64,000 nucleotides of DNA from an uncultured Gammaproteobacteria bacterium. Lineage in GTDB: Bacteria > Patescibacteriota > Patescibacteriia > VMEV01 > CAYQCH01. Each line of letters starts with the position of its first letter. Positions within the stretch are counted from its first letter, which is position 1. The notes beneath the pieces are model-generated. The model made no database searches. It had not been told where the DNA came from and saw nothing but the letters and a program-made list of their open reading frames with translations. The stretch spans positions 2,962 through 66,961 of the forward strand of contig CAZDCG010000001.1 of the NCBI GenBank assembly GCA_964503955.1, read 5' to 3'. A program made the translations under genes and the position numbers. Positions 9,964 to 43,068 of the stretch are shown piece after piece.

Positions 9964-10031
9964 TCACCCCCGCGGATAAACCTCTCCTTGCGCATCAAGC
10001 CAAAACCACTGCCAGCGGGGGTCTCAAAGTT
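9964..10031. repeat. Hairpin/inverted-repeat element (downstream arm) flanking the GIY-YIG pseudogene
   Basis: tcaCCCCCGCGG...CCAGCGGGGGtctcaaagtt. Its last 20 nt are the reverse complement of the first 20 nt of the 10316..10384 element. Confidence 0.6.
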
Positions 10032-10312
10032 CCTCGGATAAATCCTCCCAGTTAGGACTGGCCTTTTCAATCAACTCGATCTTCCAACCGCGATTCCATC
10101 TTTTTAGCTGCTTTTCCCTCATAATGGTTCCTTCAATAGATGGAATTTCTTCGAAATACACCAGTTTATCTAAACAGTATCTGGCTGTGAATCCCTTATT
10201 CACTTTTTGTTGATGCTCCCAAACCTGTCGCGCGATATTTTGTAACGCCGATATACAAAACACCATTGGGTTTATTGGTCATGATGTATACGTAAAAACG
10301 GTGTTGATACAT
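10024..10312 (-). pseudogene. GIY-YIG nuclease (YhbQ/COG2827-like), frameshifted
   Basis: N-terminal piece MYQHRFYVYIMTNKPNGVLYIGVT (GIY-YIG) in one frame; continuation NIARQVWEHQQKVNKGFTARYCLDKLVYFEE...REKQLKRWNR in the +1 frame. The break maps to a T4/A4 homopolymer at ~10237-10240, so it is either a true pseudogene or a sequencing indel. Confidence 0.7.
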
Positions 10313-10315
10313 AAA

Positions 10316-10458: not shown

Positions 10459-10487
10459 GTCGGACGGGGGCTCTGTCCCCGTCCGCA
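10459..10487. repeat. Solitary REP-like hairpin (same family as the RAYT-flanking arrays)
   Basis: gtcggacgggggctctgtccccgtccgc is near-identical to hairpin H1 of the 30.5-31.9 kb REP arrays. Confidence 0.55.
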
Positions 10488-20493: not shown

Positions 20494-20567
20494 ATGGTTC
20501 CCGGGCAGGGACTCGAACCCCGATACCCAGGACCAAAACCTGGTGTCCTACCATTAGACGACCCGGG
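20494..20567 (-). tRNA. tRNA-Gln (anticodon UUG), CCA encoded
   Basis: Hand-folded cloverleaf: acceptor TCCCGGG/CCCGGGA (U1:A72 as in bacterial tRNA-Gln). D-arm GTCT/GGAC. Anticodon stem CCAGG/CCTGG with loop TTTTGGT. T-arm CGGGG-TTCGAGT-CCCTG. Discriminator A plus CCA. Confidence 0.85.
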
Positions 20568-20811
20568 AGCGAGCAATAAGTTGTTTCTTTTCTTCTCGTC
20601 CGATACCGGACTTTAGATATAGTTCACGATTTCTGGCATCGCTCTCATTTTCAAATGGTTCAGTATGGACTATATCTAAAGGCCTATATCCTTTTGTTGA
20701 TCTCACTTTGCCCTGCTGATGCTCTTTAAACCTGCGATCAATATCTGATGTACAACCAACATATGACCACGGCCGCTTTTCTCTGCTTCTGAGAATATAT
20801 ACATAGAACAT
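20554..20811 (-). CDS. GIY-YIG nuclease (YhbQ/COG2827-like), gene abutting/overlapping the 5' end of tRNA-Gln
   Basis: MFYVYILRSREKRPWSYVGCTSDIDRRFKEHQQGK...RELYLKSG is a GIY-YIG domain. The start is set at MFYVYIL, because the ORF-track extension upstream translates a pseudo-tRNA fragment. The stop lies 14 nt inside the tRNA. Confidence 0.75.
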   Translation of the reverse strand: MFYVYILRSREKRPWSYVGCTSDIDRRFKEHQQGKVRSTKGYRPLDIVHTEPFENESDARNRELYLKSGIGREEKKQLIARSRVV

Positions 20812-20822
20812 ACCATATGGAT

Positions 20823-20905
20823 CCAGGACCCCTGCCTGCCGGCAGGCAGGAAAACCTGGTGTCCTATTTACCCGCCGAAGGAGGGCTATTAGACGACCCG
20901 GGAGC
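20823..20905 (-). pseudogene. Degenerate 5' fragment of tRNA-Gln (acceptor + D-arm + anticodon arm), carrying a D-loop insertion and a 20-nt perfect palindrome in the anticodon loop
   Basis: The reverse complement reads TCCCGGGTCGTCTAAT[AGCCCTCCTTCGGCGGGTAAAT]AGGACACCAGGTTTT[CCTGCCTGCCGGCAGGCAGG]GGTCCTGG. Outside the bracketed insertions it is colinear with tRNA-Gln positions 1-43. There is no T-arm or 3' acceptor. Confidence 0.6.
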
Positions 20906-20974: not shown

Positions 20975-21015
20975 GTCCGCCTTAGGCGGAAGACGACCCG
21001 GGAGCGAGCAATAAG
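20975..21015 (-). repeat. Second duplicated copy of the tRNA-Gln 5' leader + first 13 nt, fused to a CCGCC-TTA-GGCGG hairpin
   Basis: agacgacccgggagcgagcaataag (20991-21015) is 25/25 identical to 20555-20579, the real tRNA 5' end plus 12-nt leader. Confidence 0.6.
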
Positions 21016-25515: not shown

Positions 25516-26046
25516 ATGCCGAAAACAAAAAAACCTGCGGTCTCCAAGCGAAAACCGCAGCGAAAAACAAAAGGCCTCATTTGGACGGAGCAGCACCTGG
25601 CAGTCAAAGCGCTCATGGAGGAAGAGCTTCATGGGCTTTTGCACTATCTGCGTTCTATTCATTACCTCGCCGTTGTTCTCCTGCTCGCGTCCATCGCAAC
25701 GCTCTTTTACGCGCTCAGCGTGATTTTTCAAAATGACCATACGGCTGTTGTCGGCTTTCTCATGGTGATTTTCACCTCATTAACCGTTTCCATCATCTCC
25801 GTCTGGACGCTCAAGCCCTGGATCATGCCTCGCTTTCTGCTGCCCATCGACATGAATGAGCTTGATCTTTCCCAGCTCCTCACCCTCTTCAATAGTCCCG
25901 AAGAATATCTGAACCTGCTCAAATCCCATACGCAATTATTGACCGAGCAATATCTGATCGTAAAACTCCGCCGTTTACGCATGGCAATCCTCTTCTTTGT
26001 TTTCGGCGCGGCTGTCGCTATCTTGCTTTCGATTGCTGTTCCTTAA
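25516..26046 (+). CDS. Hypothetical membrane protein (basic N-terminus, 3-4 TM)
   Basis: ORF divergent from the RlpA-like gene. No motif. Confidence 0.4.
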   Translation: MPKTKKPAVSKRKPQRKTKGLIWTEQHLAVKALMEEELHGLLHYLRSIHYLAVVLLLASIATLFYALSVIFQNDHTAVVGFLMVIFTSLTVSIISVWTLKPWIMPRFLLPIDMNELDLSQLLTLFNSPEEYLNLLKSHTQLLTEQYLIVKLRRLRMAILFFVFGAAVAILLSIAVP

Positions 26047-26116
26047 ATCTTGATTTTGCTCCAAATTTTTGTTACATTATCCATACATGAGCGCAGAGAG
26101 GCGCTCTCTTTATTTG

Positions 26117-26137
26117 CCGACGTAGCTCAGCCGGTAC
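26117..26137 (+). other. tRNA 5'-half-like fragment (acceptor + D-arm: GCCGACGTAGCTCAGCCGGTA) upstream of GIY-YIG gene
   Basis: Matches tRNA-Thr positions 1-21 at 16/21 nt. It is followed by a GC hairpin and AAGGAG 8 nt before the GIY-YIG ATG. Confidence 0.45.
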
Positions 26138-26186
26138 CCTCCGCCCATCGCTCACGCTTAGAGCCGGCGGGCAAGGAGCAATCATT

Positions 26187-26435
26187 ATGCTGGAAGACTT
26201 TTATTATACCTACGTCTTGCTGTGTGCTGATGATATGCTCTATATTGGCTATACTGATAACCTGCCTCAACGAATGCAAGCGCATCAAGATGGACTTGTT
26301 ACCGCGACAAAAAAACGTCGACCGATGCGCCTTGTCTATTTCGAAGCATGCACCAGTCAGAAAAGCGCAATAAAGAGAGAAAAATACTTCAAAACAGGCT
26401 TTGGACGTTCATTCCTCAAAAAGAGATTATCTTAA
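26187..26435 (+). CDS. GIY-YIG nuclease (YhbQ/COG2827-like), stop codon directly abutting tRNA-Thr
   Basis: YTYVLLCADDMLYIGYTDNLPQRMQAHQDG...REKYFKTG. AAGGAG Shine-Dalgarno 8 nt upstream. The TAA stop at 26433-26435 and tRNA nucleotide 1 at 26436. Confidence 0.8.
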   Translation: MLEDFYYTYVLLCADDMLYIGYTDNLPQRMQAHQDGLVTATKKRRPMRLVYFEACTSQKSAIKREKYFKTGFGRSFLKKRLS

Positions 26436-26511
26436 GCCACCTTAGCTCAGCTGGTAGAGCAATGCTTTCGTAAAGCAGAGGTCGGCGGTTCGAATCCGCC
26501 AGGTGGCTCCA
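26436..26511 (+). tRNA. tRNA-Thr (anticodon CGU), CCA encoded
   Basis: Acceptor GCCACCT/AGGTGGC. D-arm GCTC-AGCTGGTA-GAGC. Anticodon arm with loop TTCGTAA (U33, A37). Variable AGGTC. T-arm GGCGG-TTCGAAT-CCGCC. Discriminator T, then CCA. Confidence 0.85.
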
Positions 26512-26860
26512 TTTCATACATAACATCCCCTGCCCGCCTGTGTTGACGAGCGTTAGCGAGAATGCACGGCGGGGCCAGGTGGCTCCATTTCGTACATAAC
26601 ATCCCCTGCCCGCCAGTGCTGACGAGCGTTAGCGAGGATGCACGGCGGGGCCAGGTGGCTCCATTTCATACATAACATCCCCTGCCCGCCTGTGTTGACG
26701 AGCGTTAGCGAGAATGCACGGCGGGGCCAGGTGGCTCCATTTCATACACAACGCCCTCTAATCGTCTCCAGTAACCAAGCAAGGCGACTACATATCATCC
26801 CCTGCCCGCCTGTGCTGACGAGCGATCAACGACGGCGTGCGGGAGGCCATTCTCAAACAA
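26496..26860 (+). repeat. Tandem direct repeat, ~76-bp unit x 3 full + 1 degenerate copy, each unit starting with the last 16 nt of tRNA-Thr
   Basis: The string ccaggtggctcca recurs at 26500, 26575, 26651 and 26727. The unit is the tRNA 3' end, then an AT-rich 16-mer, then the hairpin CCCGCC-N29-GGCGGG. The ORF 26638..26874 is an artefact of the repeat. Confidence 0.8.
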
Positions 26861-26880
26861 GACAACAAGAGTAATACATC

Positions 26881-26916
26881 AAAAAACAGCCCGCATGATG
26901 AGGCTGCTTTTTGTTT
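26881..26916. terminator. Bidirectional terminator hairpin (CAGCCC-gcatgatga-GGCTG, A/T flanks)
   Basis: Between the repeat array and the ftsB-like gene end. Confidence 0.45.
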
Positions 26917-26923
26917 CGTTCAA

Positions 26924-27334
26924 TCAACTTTGAAAGAAATAGCGCCACCACAAAACCGGGTTTGAAGCGCCTTCCTCTTGCTTATACGAATACGACGGTT
27001 CCTCAAAAAGCCCGGGCTCCTCATTTGGCGGTTCATCGGTAATCACGATCATCTTTTCGCCCGGCTTTTTCAGTCCCAGTTTTAACCGCGCCTGCTCTTC
27101 AAATGAATTTTCCGTTTTAAGGAATTCAACAAATCTTGAAAAATCATTGGTCTTCACTTCCAATTCAGTAATCTCCTGTTCAAGAGCCTGGATTTCCTGT
27201 TTGATCTGGTAACTTCGCATCAATTCCTTGACGAGGGACGCAGAAATCAGGAGAAATAAAACCGCCAGGGTCAACAGAAACCAGCGTGAGAAAAACCAAT
27301 GCTGCCTTCTTTCCTGGCGGCTTCGCGGTCGCAT
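26924..27334 (-). CDS. ftsB: Septum formation initiator family protein (FtsB/DivIC-like)
   Basis: Single N-terminal TM, then a coiled coil (YQIKQEIQALEQEITELEVK) and FtsB-like LKLGLKKPGEKMIVI. Confidence 0.7.
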   Translation of the reverse strand: MRPRSRQERRQHWFFSRWFLLTLAVLFLLISASLVKELMRSYQIKQEIQALEQEITELEVKTNDFSRFVEFLKTENSFEEQARLKLGLKKPGEKMIVITDEPPNEEPGLFEEPSYSYKQEEGASNPVLWWRYFFQS

Positions 27335-42597: not shown

Positions 42598-42985
42598 TTC
42601 TTCTCAGACCGGATCATAAGCCGAATTCTGTTTCCGCTAAAAGCGGACGATAGCCATCTATCTGGGATGCCTGTTGCCAGACACCTCGAGCGCGCTACCA
42701 AATTTGCGCTTGCACCAGGCAGGGTTTACCGCAAACATCGCTCACGCGATGCCGACAGGCGTAGCATGGCAACTGACCGGCCTTTGGGGCCGATAAGATG
42801 ATGACATACATCGCCTGACTTTTCACCTTTCTCCAGCGAAAAGCCGGATAGTATTGTCTCTGTGGCACTTTCCCTATGACGCTGTCGCCAGCGCCACGAT
42901 TTCATTTCGAAATTGCCTTTGGCCTCCGTAAAACGAAGGGGTGTTCGGACTTTCCTCCCAAAACCGCGCAATCGGTTCAAGATAC
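42598..42985 (-). ncRNA. rnpB: RNase P RNA (bacterial; type-B-like elements)
   Basis: The minus-strand transcript contains GGGAGGAAAGUCCGAAC (the conserved AGGAAAGUCCGGGC element, with GG>AA). It also has GGGAAAGUGCCACAGAGA, GCGGUAAACCC...CAAAUUUGGUAG, AGAUAGAUG and ACAGAAUUCGGCUUA (the ACAGAACCCGGCUUA element, with CC>UU compensating the GG>AA change). Ends are +/-20 nt. The ORFs 42577..42801 and 42726..42980 are spurious. Confidence 0.8.
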
Positions 42986-43068
42986 AGCCGTATCATAGCA
43001 TTTTGACGCTGTCTGGGCTATGCGACTGCTATTGAACGGAATGCGCGGCTTTGGGCGGCTATCTCACC

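Follow-up and report, generated by a model that had tools for sequence, protein, structure and literature searches.

We describe here a small cassette built on tRNA genes, found twice in a 64,000-nucleotide stretch of DNA (the window; contig CAZDCG010000001.1 of an uncultured member of the Patescibacteria) and again in dozens of other genomes. The cassette consists of a gene for a minimal GIY-YIG nuclease that abuts an intact tRNA gene and is preceded by a displaced copy of the 5' part of that tRNA, into which a GC-rich palindrome (HP) is inserted. We consider it probable, at roughly 0.65, that the cassette represents selfish DNA of a homing-endonuclease-like kind, which lives on tRNA genes and travels with them. 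It resembles selfish DNA because it is sporadic, uses many targets of a single gene class, and leaves behind degenerate copies, nested remnants and scars that lack the open reading frame (ORF).

At the first of the two loci, the Thr locus, the whole assembly occupies a variable block of 877 bp (26047-26923 of the window). A 176-aa gene ends on one side of the block, at 26046, and on the other lies DivIC (26924-27334, minus strand), which is convergent with it. The elements that the original prediction had listed from the sequence are all present. Nucleotides 1-21 of tRNA-Thr (GCCGACGTAGCTCAGCCGGTA) lie displaced at 26116-26136 on the plus strand; the prediction had rightly seen in them a piece of tRNA-Thr, but had placed the start one base late and counted 16 of 21 identical positions, where the count from 26116 is 17/21 against the adjacent tRNA, with mismatches at nt 4, 5, 7 and 17. 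The likeness is better than chance, as had been proposed: apart from the tRNA itself, this is the sole match of at least 15/21 to nt 1-21 on either strand of the window, and shuffles give an expectation of 0.02 matches of at least 17/21 per window. In the D-loop of the fragment follows a degenerate copy of HP (26137-26175), in which the arm CCGCCC (26141-26146) pairs with GGCGGG (26166-26171). The hairpin had been placed simply after the fragment; it is instead a separate element inserted within it, because the tRNA sequence resumes on the far side as nt 22-28 (GAGCAAT, 26176-26182, plus strand, by direct reading of the sequence), so that the displaced piece measures 28 nt in all. A Shine-Dalgarno-like AAGGAG (26173-26178, 8 nt before the ATG) is made up of the hairpin end and tRNA nt 22-24. 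The ORF (26187-26435, plus strand; Pfam PF01541, E=1.8e-15) encodes a minimal GIY-YIG nuclease of 82 aa and of the UPF0213/Slx1 type. Its TAA (26433-26435) is followed, with a spacing of 0 nt, by the intact tRNA-Thr(CGT) (26436-26511, plus strand; ARAGORN; Rfam RF00005, 66.3 bits).

Taken alone, the hairpin within the fragment is weak (DNA fold -7.3 kcal/mol, z=-0.26). It is a degenerate member of the HP family, and by eye it resembles the reverse complement of further HP copies that lie downstream of the tRNA, with which it has TGCCCGCC and AGCGT.AGCGA motifs in common. These copies (26527-26579, 26603-26655 and 26679-26731, by blastn) are part of a 76-bp tandem repeat of 3.4 copies (26498-26752, plus strand; Tandem Repeats Finder, period 76, 94% matches). 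Each unit is composed of the final 14 nt of tRNA-Thr (GCCAGGTGGCTCCA), a trailer of ~17 nt and one palindrome whose relation to the upstream one is that of a reverse complement. A partial additional unit with an HP remnant is found at 26789-26824 (plus strand; blastn, 94% identity over 36 nt to the repeat unit), and a single unit is present in contig L086 (L-numbers are our handles for contigs and loci). Within the window, blastn places the HP sequences of the Thr locus at this locus only.

The displaced fragment stems from another allele of tRNA-Thr and is not a decayed copy of the working gene. For comparison we used an independent sample, obtained by scanning metagenome contigs with the core of the window tRNA-Thr(CGT), which comprises 120 loci and 775 kb in total. 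With HP excised, the 28-nt fragment matches the tRNA-Thr(CGT) of L172 at 27/28 positions (20/21 for nt 1-21 alone). Its acceptor strand reads GCCGACG, as in the L172 allele, whereas that of the working tRNA in the window reads GCCACCT, which is more common in the 120 loci than any other allele. The mismatches at nt 4, 5 and 7 lie in the acceptor stem, where changes must pair with the 3' strand. Mismatches are clustered in the acceptor stem also in L014, L019 and L053, and by eye the fragment in L073 carries the acceptor of the L056 tRNA. Because the two copies are different alleles, the window, L014, L019, L053 and L073 point to allele replacement and not to local duplication; simple duplication in situ was rejected for the Thr locus of the window on this ground.

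The second locus, with tRNA-Gln, lies in the same window on the opposite strand and has the same modular architecture, which supports the view, already put forward in the original prediction, that the arrangement is no coincidence. Here the intact tRNA-Gln(TTG) (20495-20568, minus strand; ARAGORN and Rfam) is entered by a second GIY-YIG gene (20554-20811, minus strand; Pfam E=1.1e-12), whose stop codon TAA forms nt 13-15 of the tRNA. Its 85-aa product is 34% identical to the protein of the Thr locus (BLASTP E=6e-15). The displaced copy (20823-20903, minus strand, by direct reading) covers tRNA nt 1-42 and carries two inserts, in the order nt 1-16 (20903-20888; 16/16 matching), insert (20887-20867), nt 19-34 (20866-20851), a 20-nt perfect palindrome (20850-20831) and nt 35-42 (20830-20823). 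The short palindromes of this locus have arm motifs similar to those of HP. Farther upstream there is an older remnant (20976-21015, minus strand, by direct reading), in which 12 nt from the end of a GIY-YIG ORF (21015-21004) are followed by tRNA-Gln nt 1-13 (21003-20991) and a short hairpin (20990-20976); its sequence cttattgctcgc + tcccgggtcgtct recurs unchanged where the present ORF meets the tRNA. The remnant testifies to a previous round, so that the Gln site has been hit at least twice.

A protein-profile scan, with one genome kept per species, gave 80 homologous loci, 49 of which have a tRNA on the same strand at most 117 nt downstream of the stop codon. The distance between stop and tRNA ranges from -39 (an overlap) to +20 nt in 38 of these 49, mostly 1-16 nt, and from 36 to 117 nt in the other 11. 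The zero spacing of the Thr locus is only one value within this range and is not what is conserved. Thirteen tRNA identities are used (Lys, Gln, Asn, Phe, Val, Met, Leu, Thr, Pro, Ala, Arg, Glu and His), and Rfam confirmed the downstream tRNAs in 12 loci. Most of the tRNA-linked loci repeat the 5' part of their tRNA upstream of the ORF, in a copy that is split by HP. The local-alignment scores of these copies reach 34-42, against a null mean of 16 and a 95th percentile of 26. Of 30 loci, about 20 have a copy that does not differ from the intact tRNA, which fits recent events, allelic spread or gene conversion. The leader of the tRNA can be duplicated as well: the second copy begins directly after the stop codon in L050, where 20/20 bases are identical, and 10 bases are duplicated in L007.

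The mirror image of this arrangement exists too. In four loci of the type found in the Planctomycetes-Verrucomicrobia-Chlamydiae (PVC) group, a tRNA-Val stands just upstream of the ORF. In one of these, L001, the bare ORF is flanked by a duplication of 52 bp, made up of tRNA-Val nt 42-75 and 18 nt of trailer, whose two copies are identical by eye, with HP in the downstream copy; L001 and L067 represent the 3'-end form of the duplicated gene terminus. Scars from which the ORF is missing, with an HP-bearing tRNA copy followed by an intact tRNA, were found in L079 (265-304), L031 (1085-1120), L045, L053, L051 and L065.

The palindrome was collected in 53 GC-rich copies with arms CCCGCCCGC/GCGGGCGGG or T-variants of them, lying almost always in tRNA-derived sequence beside a GIY-YIG gene. 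Excision of HP restores a contiguous, ungapped tRNA sequence in 44 of 48 cases among the relatives and leaves no duplicated bases beyond 0-3 ambiguous G's, and hence no target-site duplication. In about two thirds of cases it is located after tRNA nt 8-9, or in the D-loop, the anticodon loop or the T-loop. The position of HP follows the end of the displaced copy (r=0.90), with an intervening tRNA stretch of 7-22 nt (median 10) and with HP 12-40 nt upstream of the ATG; this coupling may reflect a mechanism, or merely the loss of dispensable DNA between two constrained elements. The classifiable copies are oriented 13:13, and L079 contains an exact reverse-complement pair. Occurrence in both orientations argues against a strand-specific role in RNA, and we rejected on these grounds the idea that HP is an RNA leader or riboswitch.

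HP is a conserved DNA element under sequence constraint. A 47-nt subtype is 91-100% identical in seven metagenome-assembled genomes (MAGs) at four tRNA species, where the neighbouring ORFs have saturated dS, and a 36-nt subtype is identical at 36/36 positions between L065, from a Kiritimatiellales MAG, and L043, from an unrelated MAG. The variable interior retains hairpin potential (median z -1.8 against shuffles, with 94% of copies below 0). These z-scores were computed sequence by sequence because the RNAalifold alignment gave no covariation signal for HP, the outer stem being invariant and the interior not alignable; comparison by eye of the sequences with the fold suggested one compensatory change from A-T to G-C. 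A nhmmer profile of HP was too insensitive for elements of 36-60 nt, and Rfam has no family for HP or for the leader. HP has the conserved terminal inverted repeats, the multiple copies and the two orientations expected of MITEs (miniature transposable elements with inverted repeats) or repetitive extragenic palindromic (REP) sequences, without their target-site duplication or a cognate transposase: the only gene that consistently adjoins HP copies is the GIY-YIG ORF, and no HUH or DDE transposase is associated with them.

A variation on this theme was seen in L041 (3242-3286) and at the tRNA-Lys loci L004, L008, L020, L028, L057 and L072, where HP is located within the first 3-5 nt of the working tRNA-Lys. 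At these loci the terminal GGG of HP appears to supply or regenerate the 5' end of the tRNA. ARAGORN did not call the tRNA-Lys of L041, and tRNA-Lys genes with HP near their 5' end may be missed, or given a wrong start, in annotation.

The protein encoded at the Thr locus matches PF01541 with 57.4 bits (cut-off 22.6) over residues 6-72 and contains no other Pfam domain. Members of the family have 78-120 aa, and the residues that are invariant across 30 sequences include Y7, Y9, Y19, G21, R29, H33 and E65. The closest pairs have a dN/dS of 0.08-0.16, with dS saturated, and the protein is under purifying selection. An AlphaFold2 model (pLDDT 90.9) has the three strands and three helices of the GIY-YIG alpha/beta fold. 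A profile search of the sequences in the Protein Data Bank (PDB) returned only UPF0213 proteins (BH0048, 1e-13; EF2693, 1e-11) and SLX1 (1e-4 to 8e-3). Foldseek ranked UPF0213 BH0048 (PDB 1zg2) and EF2693 (PDB 1ywl) first and Slx1 next (TM-score 0.63-0.73), with the N-terminal domain of UvrC farther away; neither the profile nor the fold search retrieved an enzyme of the I-TevI type. There was no match in NCBIfam and no meaningful one in PADLOC (a marginal hit, E=0.007, for the Gln-locus protein), and PHROGs gave no meaningful family assignment. The best homologues in phage databases are less than 45% identical and stand in unrelated contexts, with no match to the phage Seg proteins; because these homologues are so distant, there is no obvious phage vector.

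A third GIY-YIG-like gene of the window (~10024-10313, minus strand) belongs to another, longer subfamily with the C-terminus ...NPNWEDLSEEL. It is split by a frameshift, has no tRNA neighbour and is probably a pseudogene.

The distribution of the cassette is sporadic. In the independent sample a family member directly upstream was found at 1 of 118 tRNA-Thr, 3 of 25 tRNA-Gln and none of 64 tRNA-Gly genes. The ORF at the sole occupied tRNA-Thr locus, L187, has an internal stop. All three occupied tRNA-Gln loci have the split 5' fragment and a variant of HP, and two of them, L132 and L165, are identical over the ~730 nt displayed. The empty tRNA-Thr genes are followed by ordinary terminators. 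In the protein tree some tRNA identities are grouped and most are interleaved.

The orthologous site of the Thr locus was compared in the four nearest relatives found (L224, L225/L226, L227 and L228), whose orthologues of the 176-aa gene are 51-65% identical. The gene order is the same in all four: FtsX, FtsE, RlpA, the 176-aa gene, convergent DivIC, Big_1 and TPR. There no more than 1-5 nt separate the 176-aa gene from DivIC, or the two overlap, and in the 2.5 kb downstream and 1.2-2.5 kb upstream of the 176-aa gene no tRNA was detected and no GIY-YIG gene was called. As these relatives lack the entire 877-bp block, the block, including its tRNA, is present or absent as a unit. For the Gln locus the corresponding MgtE neighbourhoods are not syntenic. 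The original prediction had named, as evidence against itself, a 21-mer without resemblance to any tRNA together with related genomes in which tRNA-Thr stands without a gene or scar. The 21-mer does match tRNA-Thr; most relatives have a tRNA-Thr without the gene, and the nearest are without the entire block. A tRNA-Thr without the gene in relatives is what a mobile element predicts and not a refutation.

Some further observations concern individual loci. L205, L172 and L121 have otherwise empty tRNA-Thr or tRNA-Gln genes with duplicated tRNA 3'-end fragments 100-170 nt downstream, and in L172 the terminator is duplicated too; tRNA-end duplications therefore arise also without an adjacent GIY-YIG gene. 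In L138 (5670-6015) a GIY-YIG gene of the family lies 110 nt downstream of tRNA-Thr, not upstream of it; a long inverted repeat (tcccgttagagat...atctctaacggga) encloses the spacer, and neither a downstream tRNA nor HP is present. At the Moranbacteria-type locus, one population variant, L220 (980-1637), carries a large serine recombinase with Resolvase, Recombinase and Zn_ribbon_recom domains. It begins 43 nt past the GIY-YIG gene, in the place where other variants have CutA1, which suggests that a second mobile element uses the same spot.

With these data in mind, one may propose how such a cassette would persist and spread. The cassette would be harmless within the tRNA transcription unit because part of the tRNA is present twice, as a dead 5' fragment upstream and as an intact tRNA after the stop codon. 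Transcription of the ORF would start at the promoter of the tRNA itself, so that the tRNA precursor would include it. It seems to lie between that promoter and the tRNA, since TATAAT promoter-like boxes occur just upstream of the displaced fragment in relatives (tggtataat in L079, gtataat in L037) and nothing separates the ORF from the tRNA, the space between them being too small for a promoter. The cell would then be obliged to transcribe the ORF in order to make the tRNA, and RNase P or other tRNA processing would release the ORF mRNA from it. Trimming of the mRNA by RNase P exactly at the stop codon, as the original prediction had it for the Thr locus, is plausible and would be incidental to the geometry of insertion. 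The nuclease, in turn, would break tRNA-gene DNA that has no cassette, and repair would copy in the cassette with adjacent tRNA sequence or with a whole tRNA gene, as for SegB and the mitochondrial ORFs discussed below. At the Thr locus of the window, an incoming cassette with its own tRNA-Thr allele would have replaced an older allele, or would have come with a piece of one. What the data show is the anatomy of the cassette, its recurrence, its scattered distribution, the difference in allele between the tRNA copies and the selection that preserves the protein; nuclease activity, cleavage target, co-transcription and copying mechanism are steps that we infer.

A number of observations weigh against this homing-like model. 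Classical GIY-YIG homing endonucleases have a separate DNA-binding domain; in its sporadic distribution and its degenerate copies the cassette behaves as homing endonuclease genes do, but its 82-aa protein has no such domain and no space for one, and the nearest relatives of the protein are structure-specific, not sequence-specific, enzymes. Simple homing leaves the frequent switches between tRNA species and the presence of HP unexplained, and homologues without a tRNA neighbour exist in Bacteroidota and Ignavibacteria. At the Thr locus of the window the displaced fragment is directly preceded by a terminator-like hairpin (26089-26106, with a T-run to 26114), after which there is no clear sigma-70-type promoter. 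A tRNA-Thr is found between RlpA and DivIC in more distant Patescibacteria, and the block could have been gained here or lost in the four relatives. No pair of filled and empty alleles was found within one species. All population contigs of the window organism carry the element and identical proteins (P0112, P0092) keep one locus each across many samples, so recent mobility is not demonstrated.

As the main rival, one may speculate about a structure-guided transposon, in which the Slx1-like nuclease would nick the tRNA gene, extruded as a cloverleaf or cruciform, and the HP cruciform on opposite strands, HP being its cognate site and mobilised in trans. One nick would fall outside the tRNA end and the other in the tRNA body (the junctions seen lie at nt 14-38 on the 5' side and at nt 25-42 in the mirror form), and insertion of the bare ORF between the staggered nicks would yield a target duplication of 30-60 bp that keeps one tRNA intact. 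Such a mechanism would account for the bare ORF with its crisp junctions, for duplications that are identical by eye and extend into locus-specific leader or trailer (L050, L001), for the many tRNA species interleaved in the protein tree, and for the branch-specific nucleases that are the nearest structural relatives. It would likewise suit what is seen of HP: the preference for the connector and loops of the cloverleaf in either orientation and with no target duplication, the conservation far beyond that of neutral sites, the hairpin potential of the interior, and the coupling to the end of the displaced copy. We nevertheless hold it to be unlikely. Strand transfer is not known for GIY-YIG enzymes, the scheme has no known enzymatic precedent, and the ORF travels without transposase, ligase or polymerase. 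A pure target duplication fails where the displaced copy belongs to another allele (the window, L019, L053 and L073). The coupling between HP and the junction could reflect deletion of dispensable DNA, and the loop preference is moderate, with about two thirds of the sites and junctions ambiguous by 2-3 nt.

In a broader form, which we put forward tentatively as the less probable counterpart of the homing-like model, the GIY-YIG protein and HP would together make up a prokaryotic mobile element that belongs to a class of its own, hitherto unknown. This element would target DNA shape (the tRNA-gene cloverleaf or cruciform) and not sequence, with HP as the cognate site of the nuclease, insert as a bare ORF with a long, self-rescuing duplication, and ferry whole tRNA genes between genomes and even phyla (Patescibacteria and PVC). 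If true, this would give the UPF0213 family its first biological role.

It is quite improbable, in our view, that the ORF is instead a host gene, namely a small repair or processing nuclease in an operon with the tRNA and released by RNase P, with the fragments as by-products of tandem duplication or remnants of attachment sites. Strong purifying selection, the stability of the same locus over many samples, the wide occurrence of tRNA-less homologues in Bacteroidota and the presence in the window of a class A RNase P RNA gene (42602-42995, minus strand; 131.7 bits) would all suit such a gene. Yet a host gene would hardly use 13 different tRNAs and be absent from 99% of the tRNA-Thr and 88% of the tRNA-Gln genes of the independent sample, nor would one expect pseudogenised copies (L187 and the third copy of the window) and nested remnants as at the Gln locus. 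There is no integrase nearby, the duplicated end is the 5' end and not the 3' end that integrases use, and neither NCBIfam nor PADLOC recognises the protein in a meaningful way. Finally, the probability that the elements stand together by chance, or through faulty assembly of a tRNA locus rich in repeats, is negligible, for although contigs often break at the 76-bp repeats and an N-gap lies beside the duplicated junction in L031, the identical Thr-locus sequence is present in contigs from five other, independent sequencing runs, the architecture is repeated in dozens of unrelated assemblies, and a 17/21 match is hardly to be expected by chance in the window.

Two further candidates were rejected outright. 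A group I intron does not apply, as the tRNA is intact and Rfam finds no ribozyme. An integrase attachment site or island does not apply either, since it is the 5' and not the 3' end of the tRNA that is duplicated, and the repeats have no recombinase between them; the 14-nt repeats of the tRNA 3' end downstream at the Thr locus enclose only 62 nt.

Elsewhere in the window, two tandem arrays (30543-30871 and 31564-31985, with periods of 146 and 115 nt) flank a 186-aa ORF (30882-31442, minus strand). Both share hairpin modules such as CGGGCGGAGATGGAACCTCCGCCCG and GGACGGGGGCTCTGTCCCCGTCC, which are distinct from the tRNA-linked palindrome family, and a GC hairpin of the same type occurs at 10461-10485, upstream of the third GIY-YIG-like gene.

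The homing-like cassette described here is of interest in several respects. Patescibacteria usually have single-copy tRNA genes. A widespread and apparently undescribed parasite of tRNA genes in their reduced genomes bears on how such genomes tolerate selfish DNA and exchange tRNA genes. It also provides a concrete, testable context for the very common UPF0213 family, two solved structures of which were deposited as hypothetical proteins. The tie between HP, tRNA-derived DNA and a nuclease of structure-specific type opens shape-based nuclease targeting to experiment. In addition, pseudo-tRNA fragments, tandem repeats of tRNA ends and contig breaks at the tRNA loci of MAGs may often be footprints of this element. 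Our searches of the full-text literature brought up no account of small GIY-YIG genes next to bacterial tRNA genes, nor of the palindrome.

Among known systems, the closest in sequence and fold are the UPF0213 proteins and Slx1, which have the same catalytic motifs. Slx1 differs in its extra zinc-finger domain and in acting with Slx4 on branched DNA, and we know of no tRNA or palindrome context described for either. REP sequences with their associated transposases (REP/RAYT), IS200/IS605-derived palindromes and MITEs resemble HP in being short and GC-rich with conserved ends, in occurring in both orientations with no obvious target duplication, and presumably in being recognised in folded form. 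HP differs from them in being found nearly only in tRNA-derived sequence by a GIY-YIG gene, with no HUH or DDE transposase and no Rfam family. Bacterial tRNA genes also harbour group I introns that carry homing endonuclease genes, which are likewise selfish DNA and occur in the same phylum (PMC13011429). In the cassette, by contrast, the tRNA is uninterrupted, Rfam detects no ribozyme and the ORF lies outside the mature tRNA. The paper on tRNA introns of the Patescibacteria (candidate phyla radiation, CPR) makes no mention of GIY-YIG (PMC13011429), and a paper on CPR rRNA insertions reports sparse GIY-YIG genes, in rRNA insertions only.

Two systems are closer in arrangement. SegB of phage T4 has ~220 aa with a separate DNA-binding region, whereas the cassette protein, of the UPF0213/Slx1 branch, amounts to no more than a catalytic domain of 82 aa; SegB is encoded by phage, whereas the cassette is chromosomal in Patescibacteria and PVC bacteria. 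According to the abstract of its report, SegB is like the cassette a GIY-YIG gene among tRNA genes that is sporadic among related genomes; its site includes the conserved TpsiC-arm motif of tRNA, and it spreads itself together with neighbouring tRNA genes (PMC2330249). That abstract mentions neither partial tRNA duplications nor a companion palindrome (PMC2330249).

The mobile ORFs (mORFs) of fungal mitochondria bring a replacement gene end and displace the native one, as in atp6 of Allomyces and atp6, atp9, cox2 and nad3 of Glomus (PMC3630166). Both systems place an endonuclease ORF in an essential gene, the terminus of which is present twice, once joined to the functional gene and once displaced. 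In the mORFs the two copies can be foreign and native in origin, and those of L019, L053, L073 and the window may differ in the same way. The PVC-type order of gene, ORF and displaced 3' end is the exact counterpart of the mORF arrangement. Mobile double-hairpin elements are reportedly found near such ORFs in the mitochondrial DNA of Allomyces. The cassette differs from mORFs in targeting a bacterial chromosomal tRNA gene, with the 5' end duplicated in Patescibacteria, in encoding a minimal domain of UPF0213/Slx1 type in place of a LAGLIDADG or classical GIY-YIG homing enzyme, and in its conserved palindrome. The cassette is thus best filed under a kind already known, that of free-standing homing-type endonuclease genes with partial duplication of the target gene, among which it is unusual for its minimal UPF0213/Slx1-type nuclease, for a tRNA specificity that extends over many identities and two bacterial groups, and for its obligate-looking palindrome.

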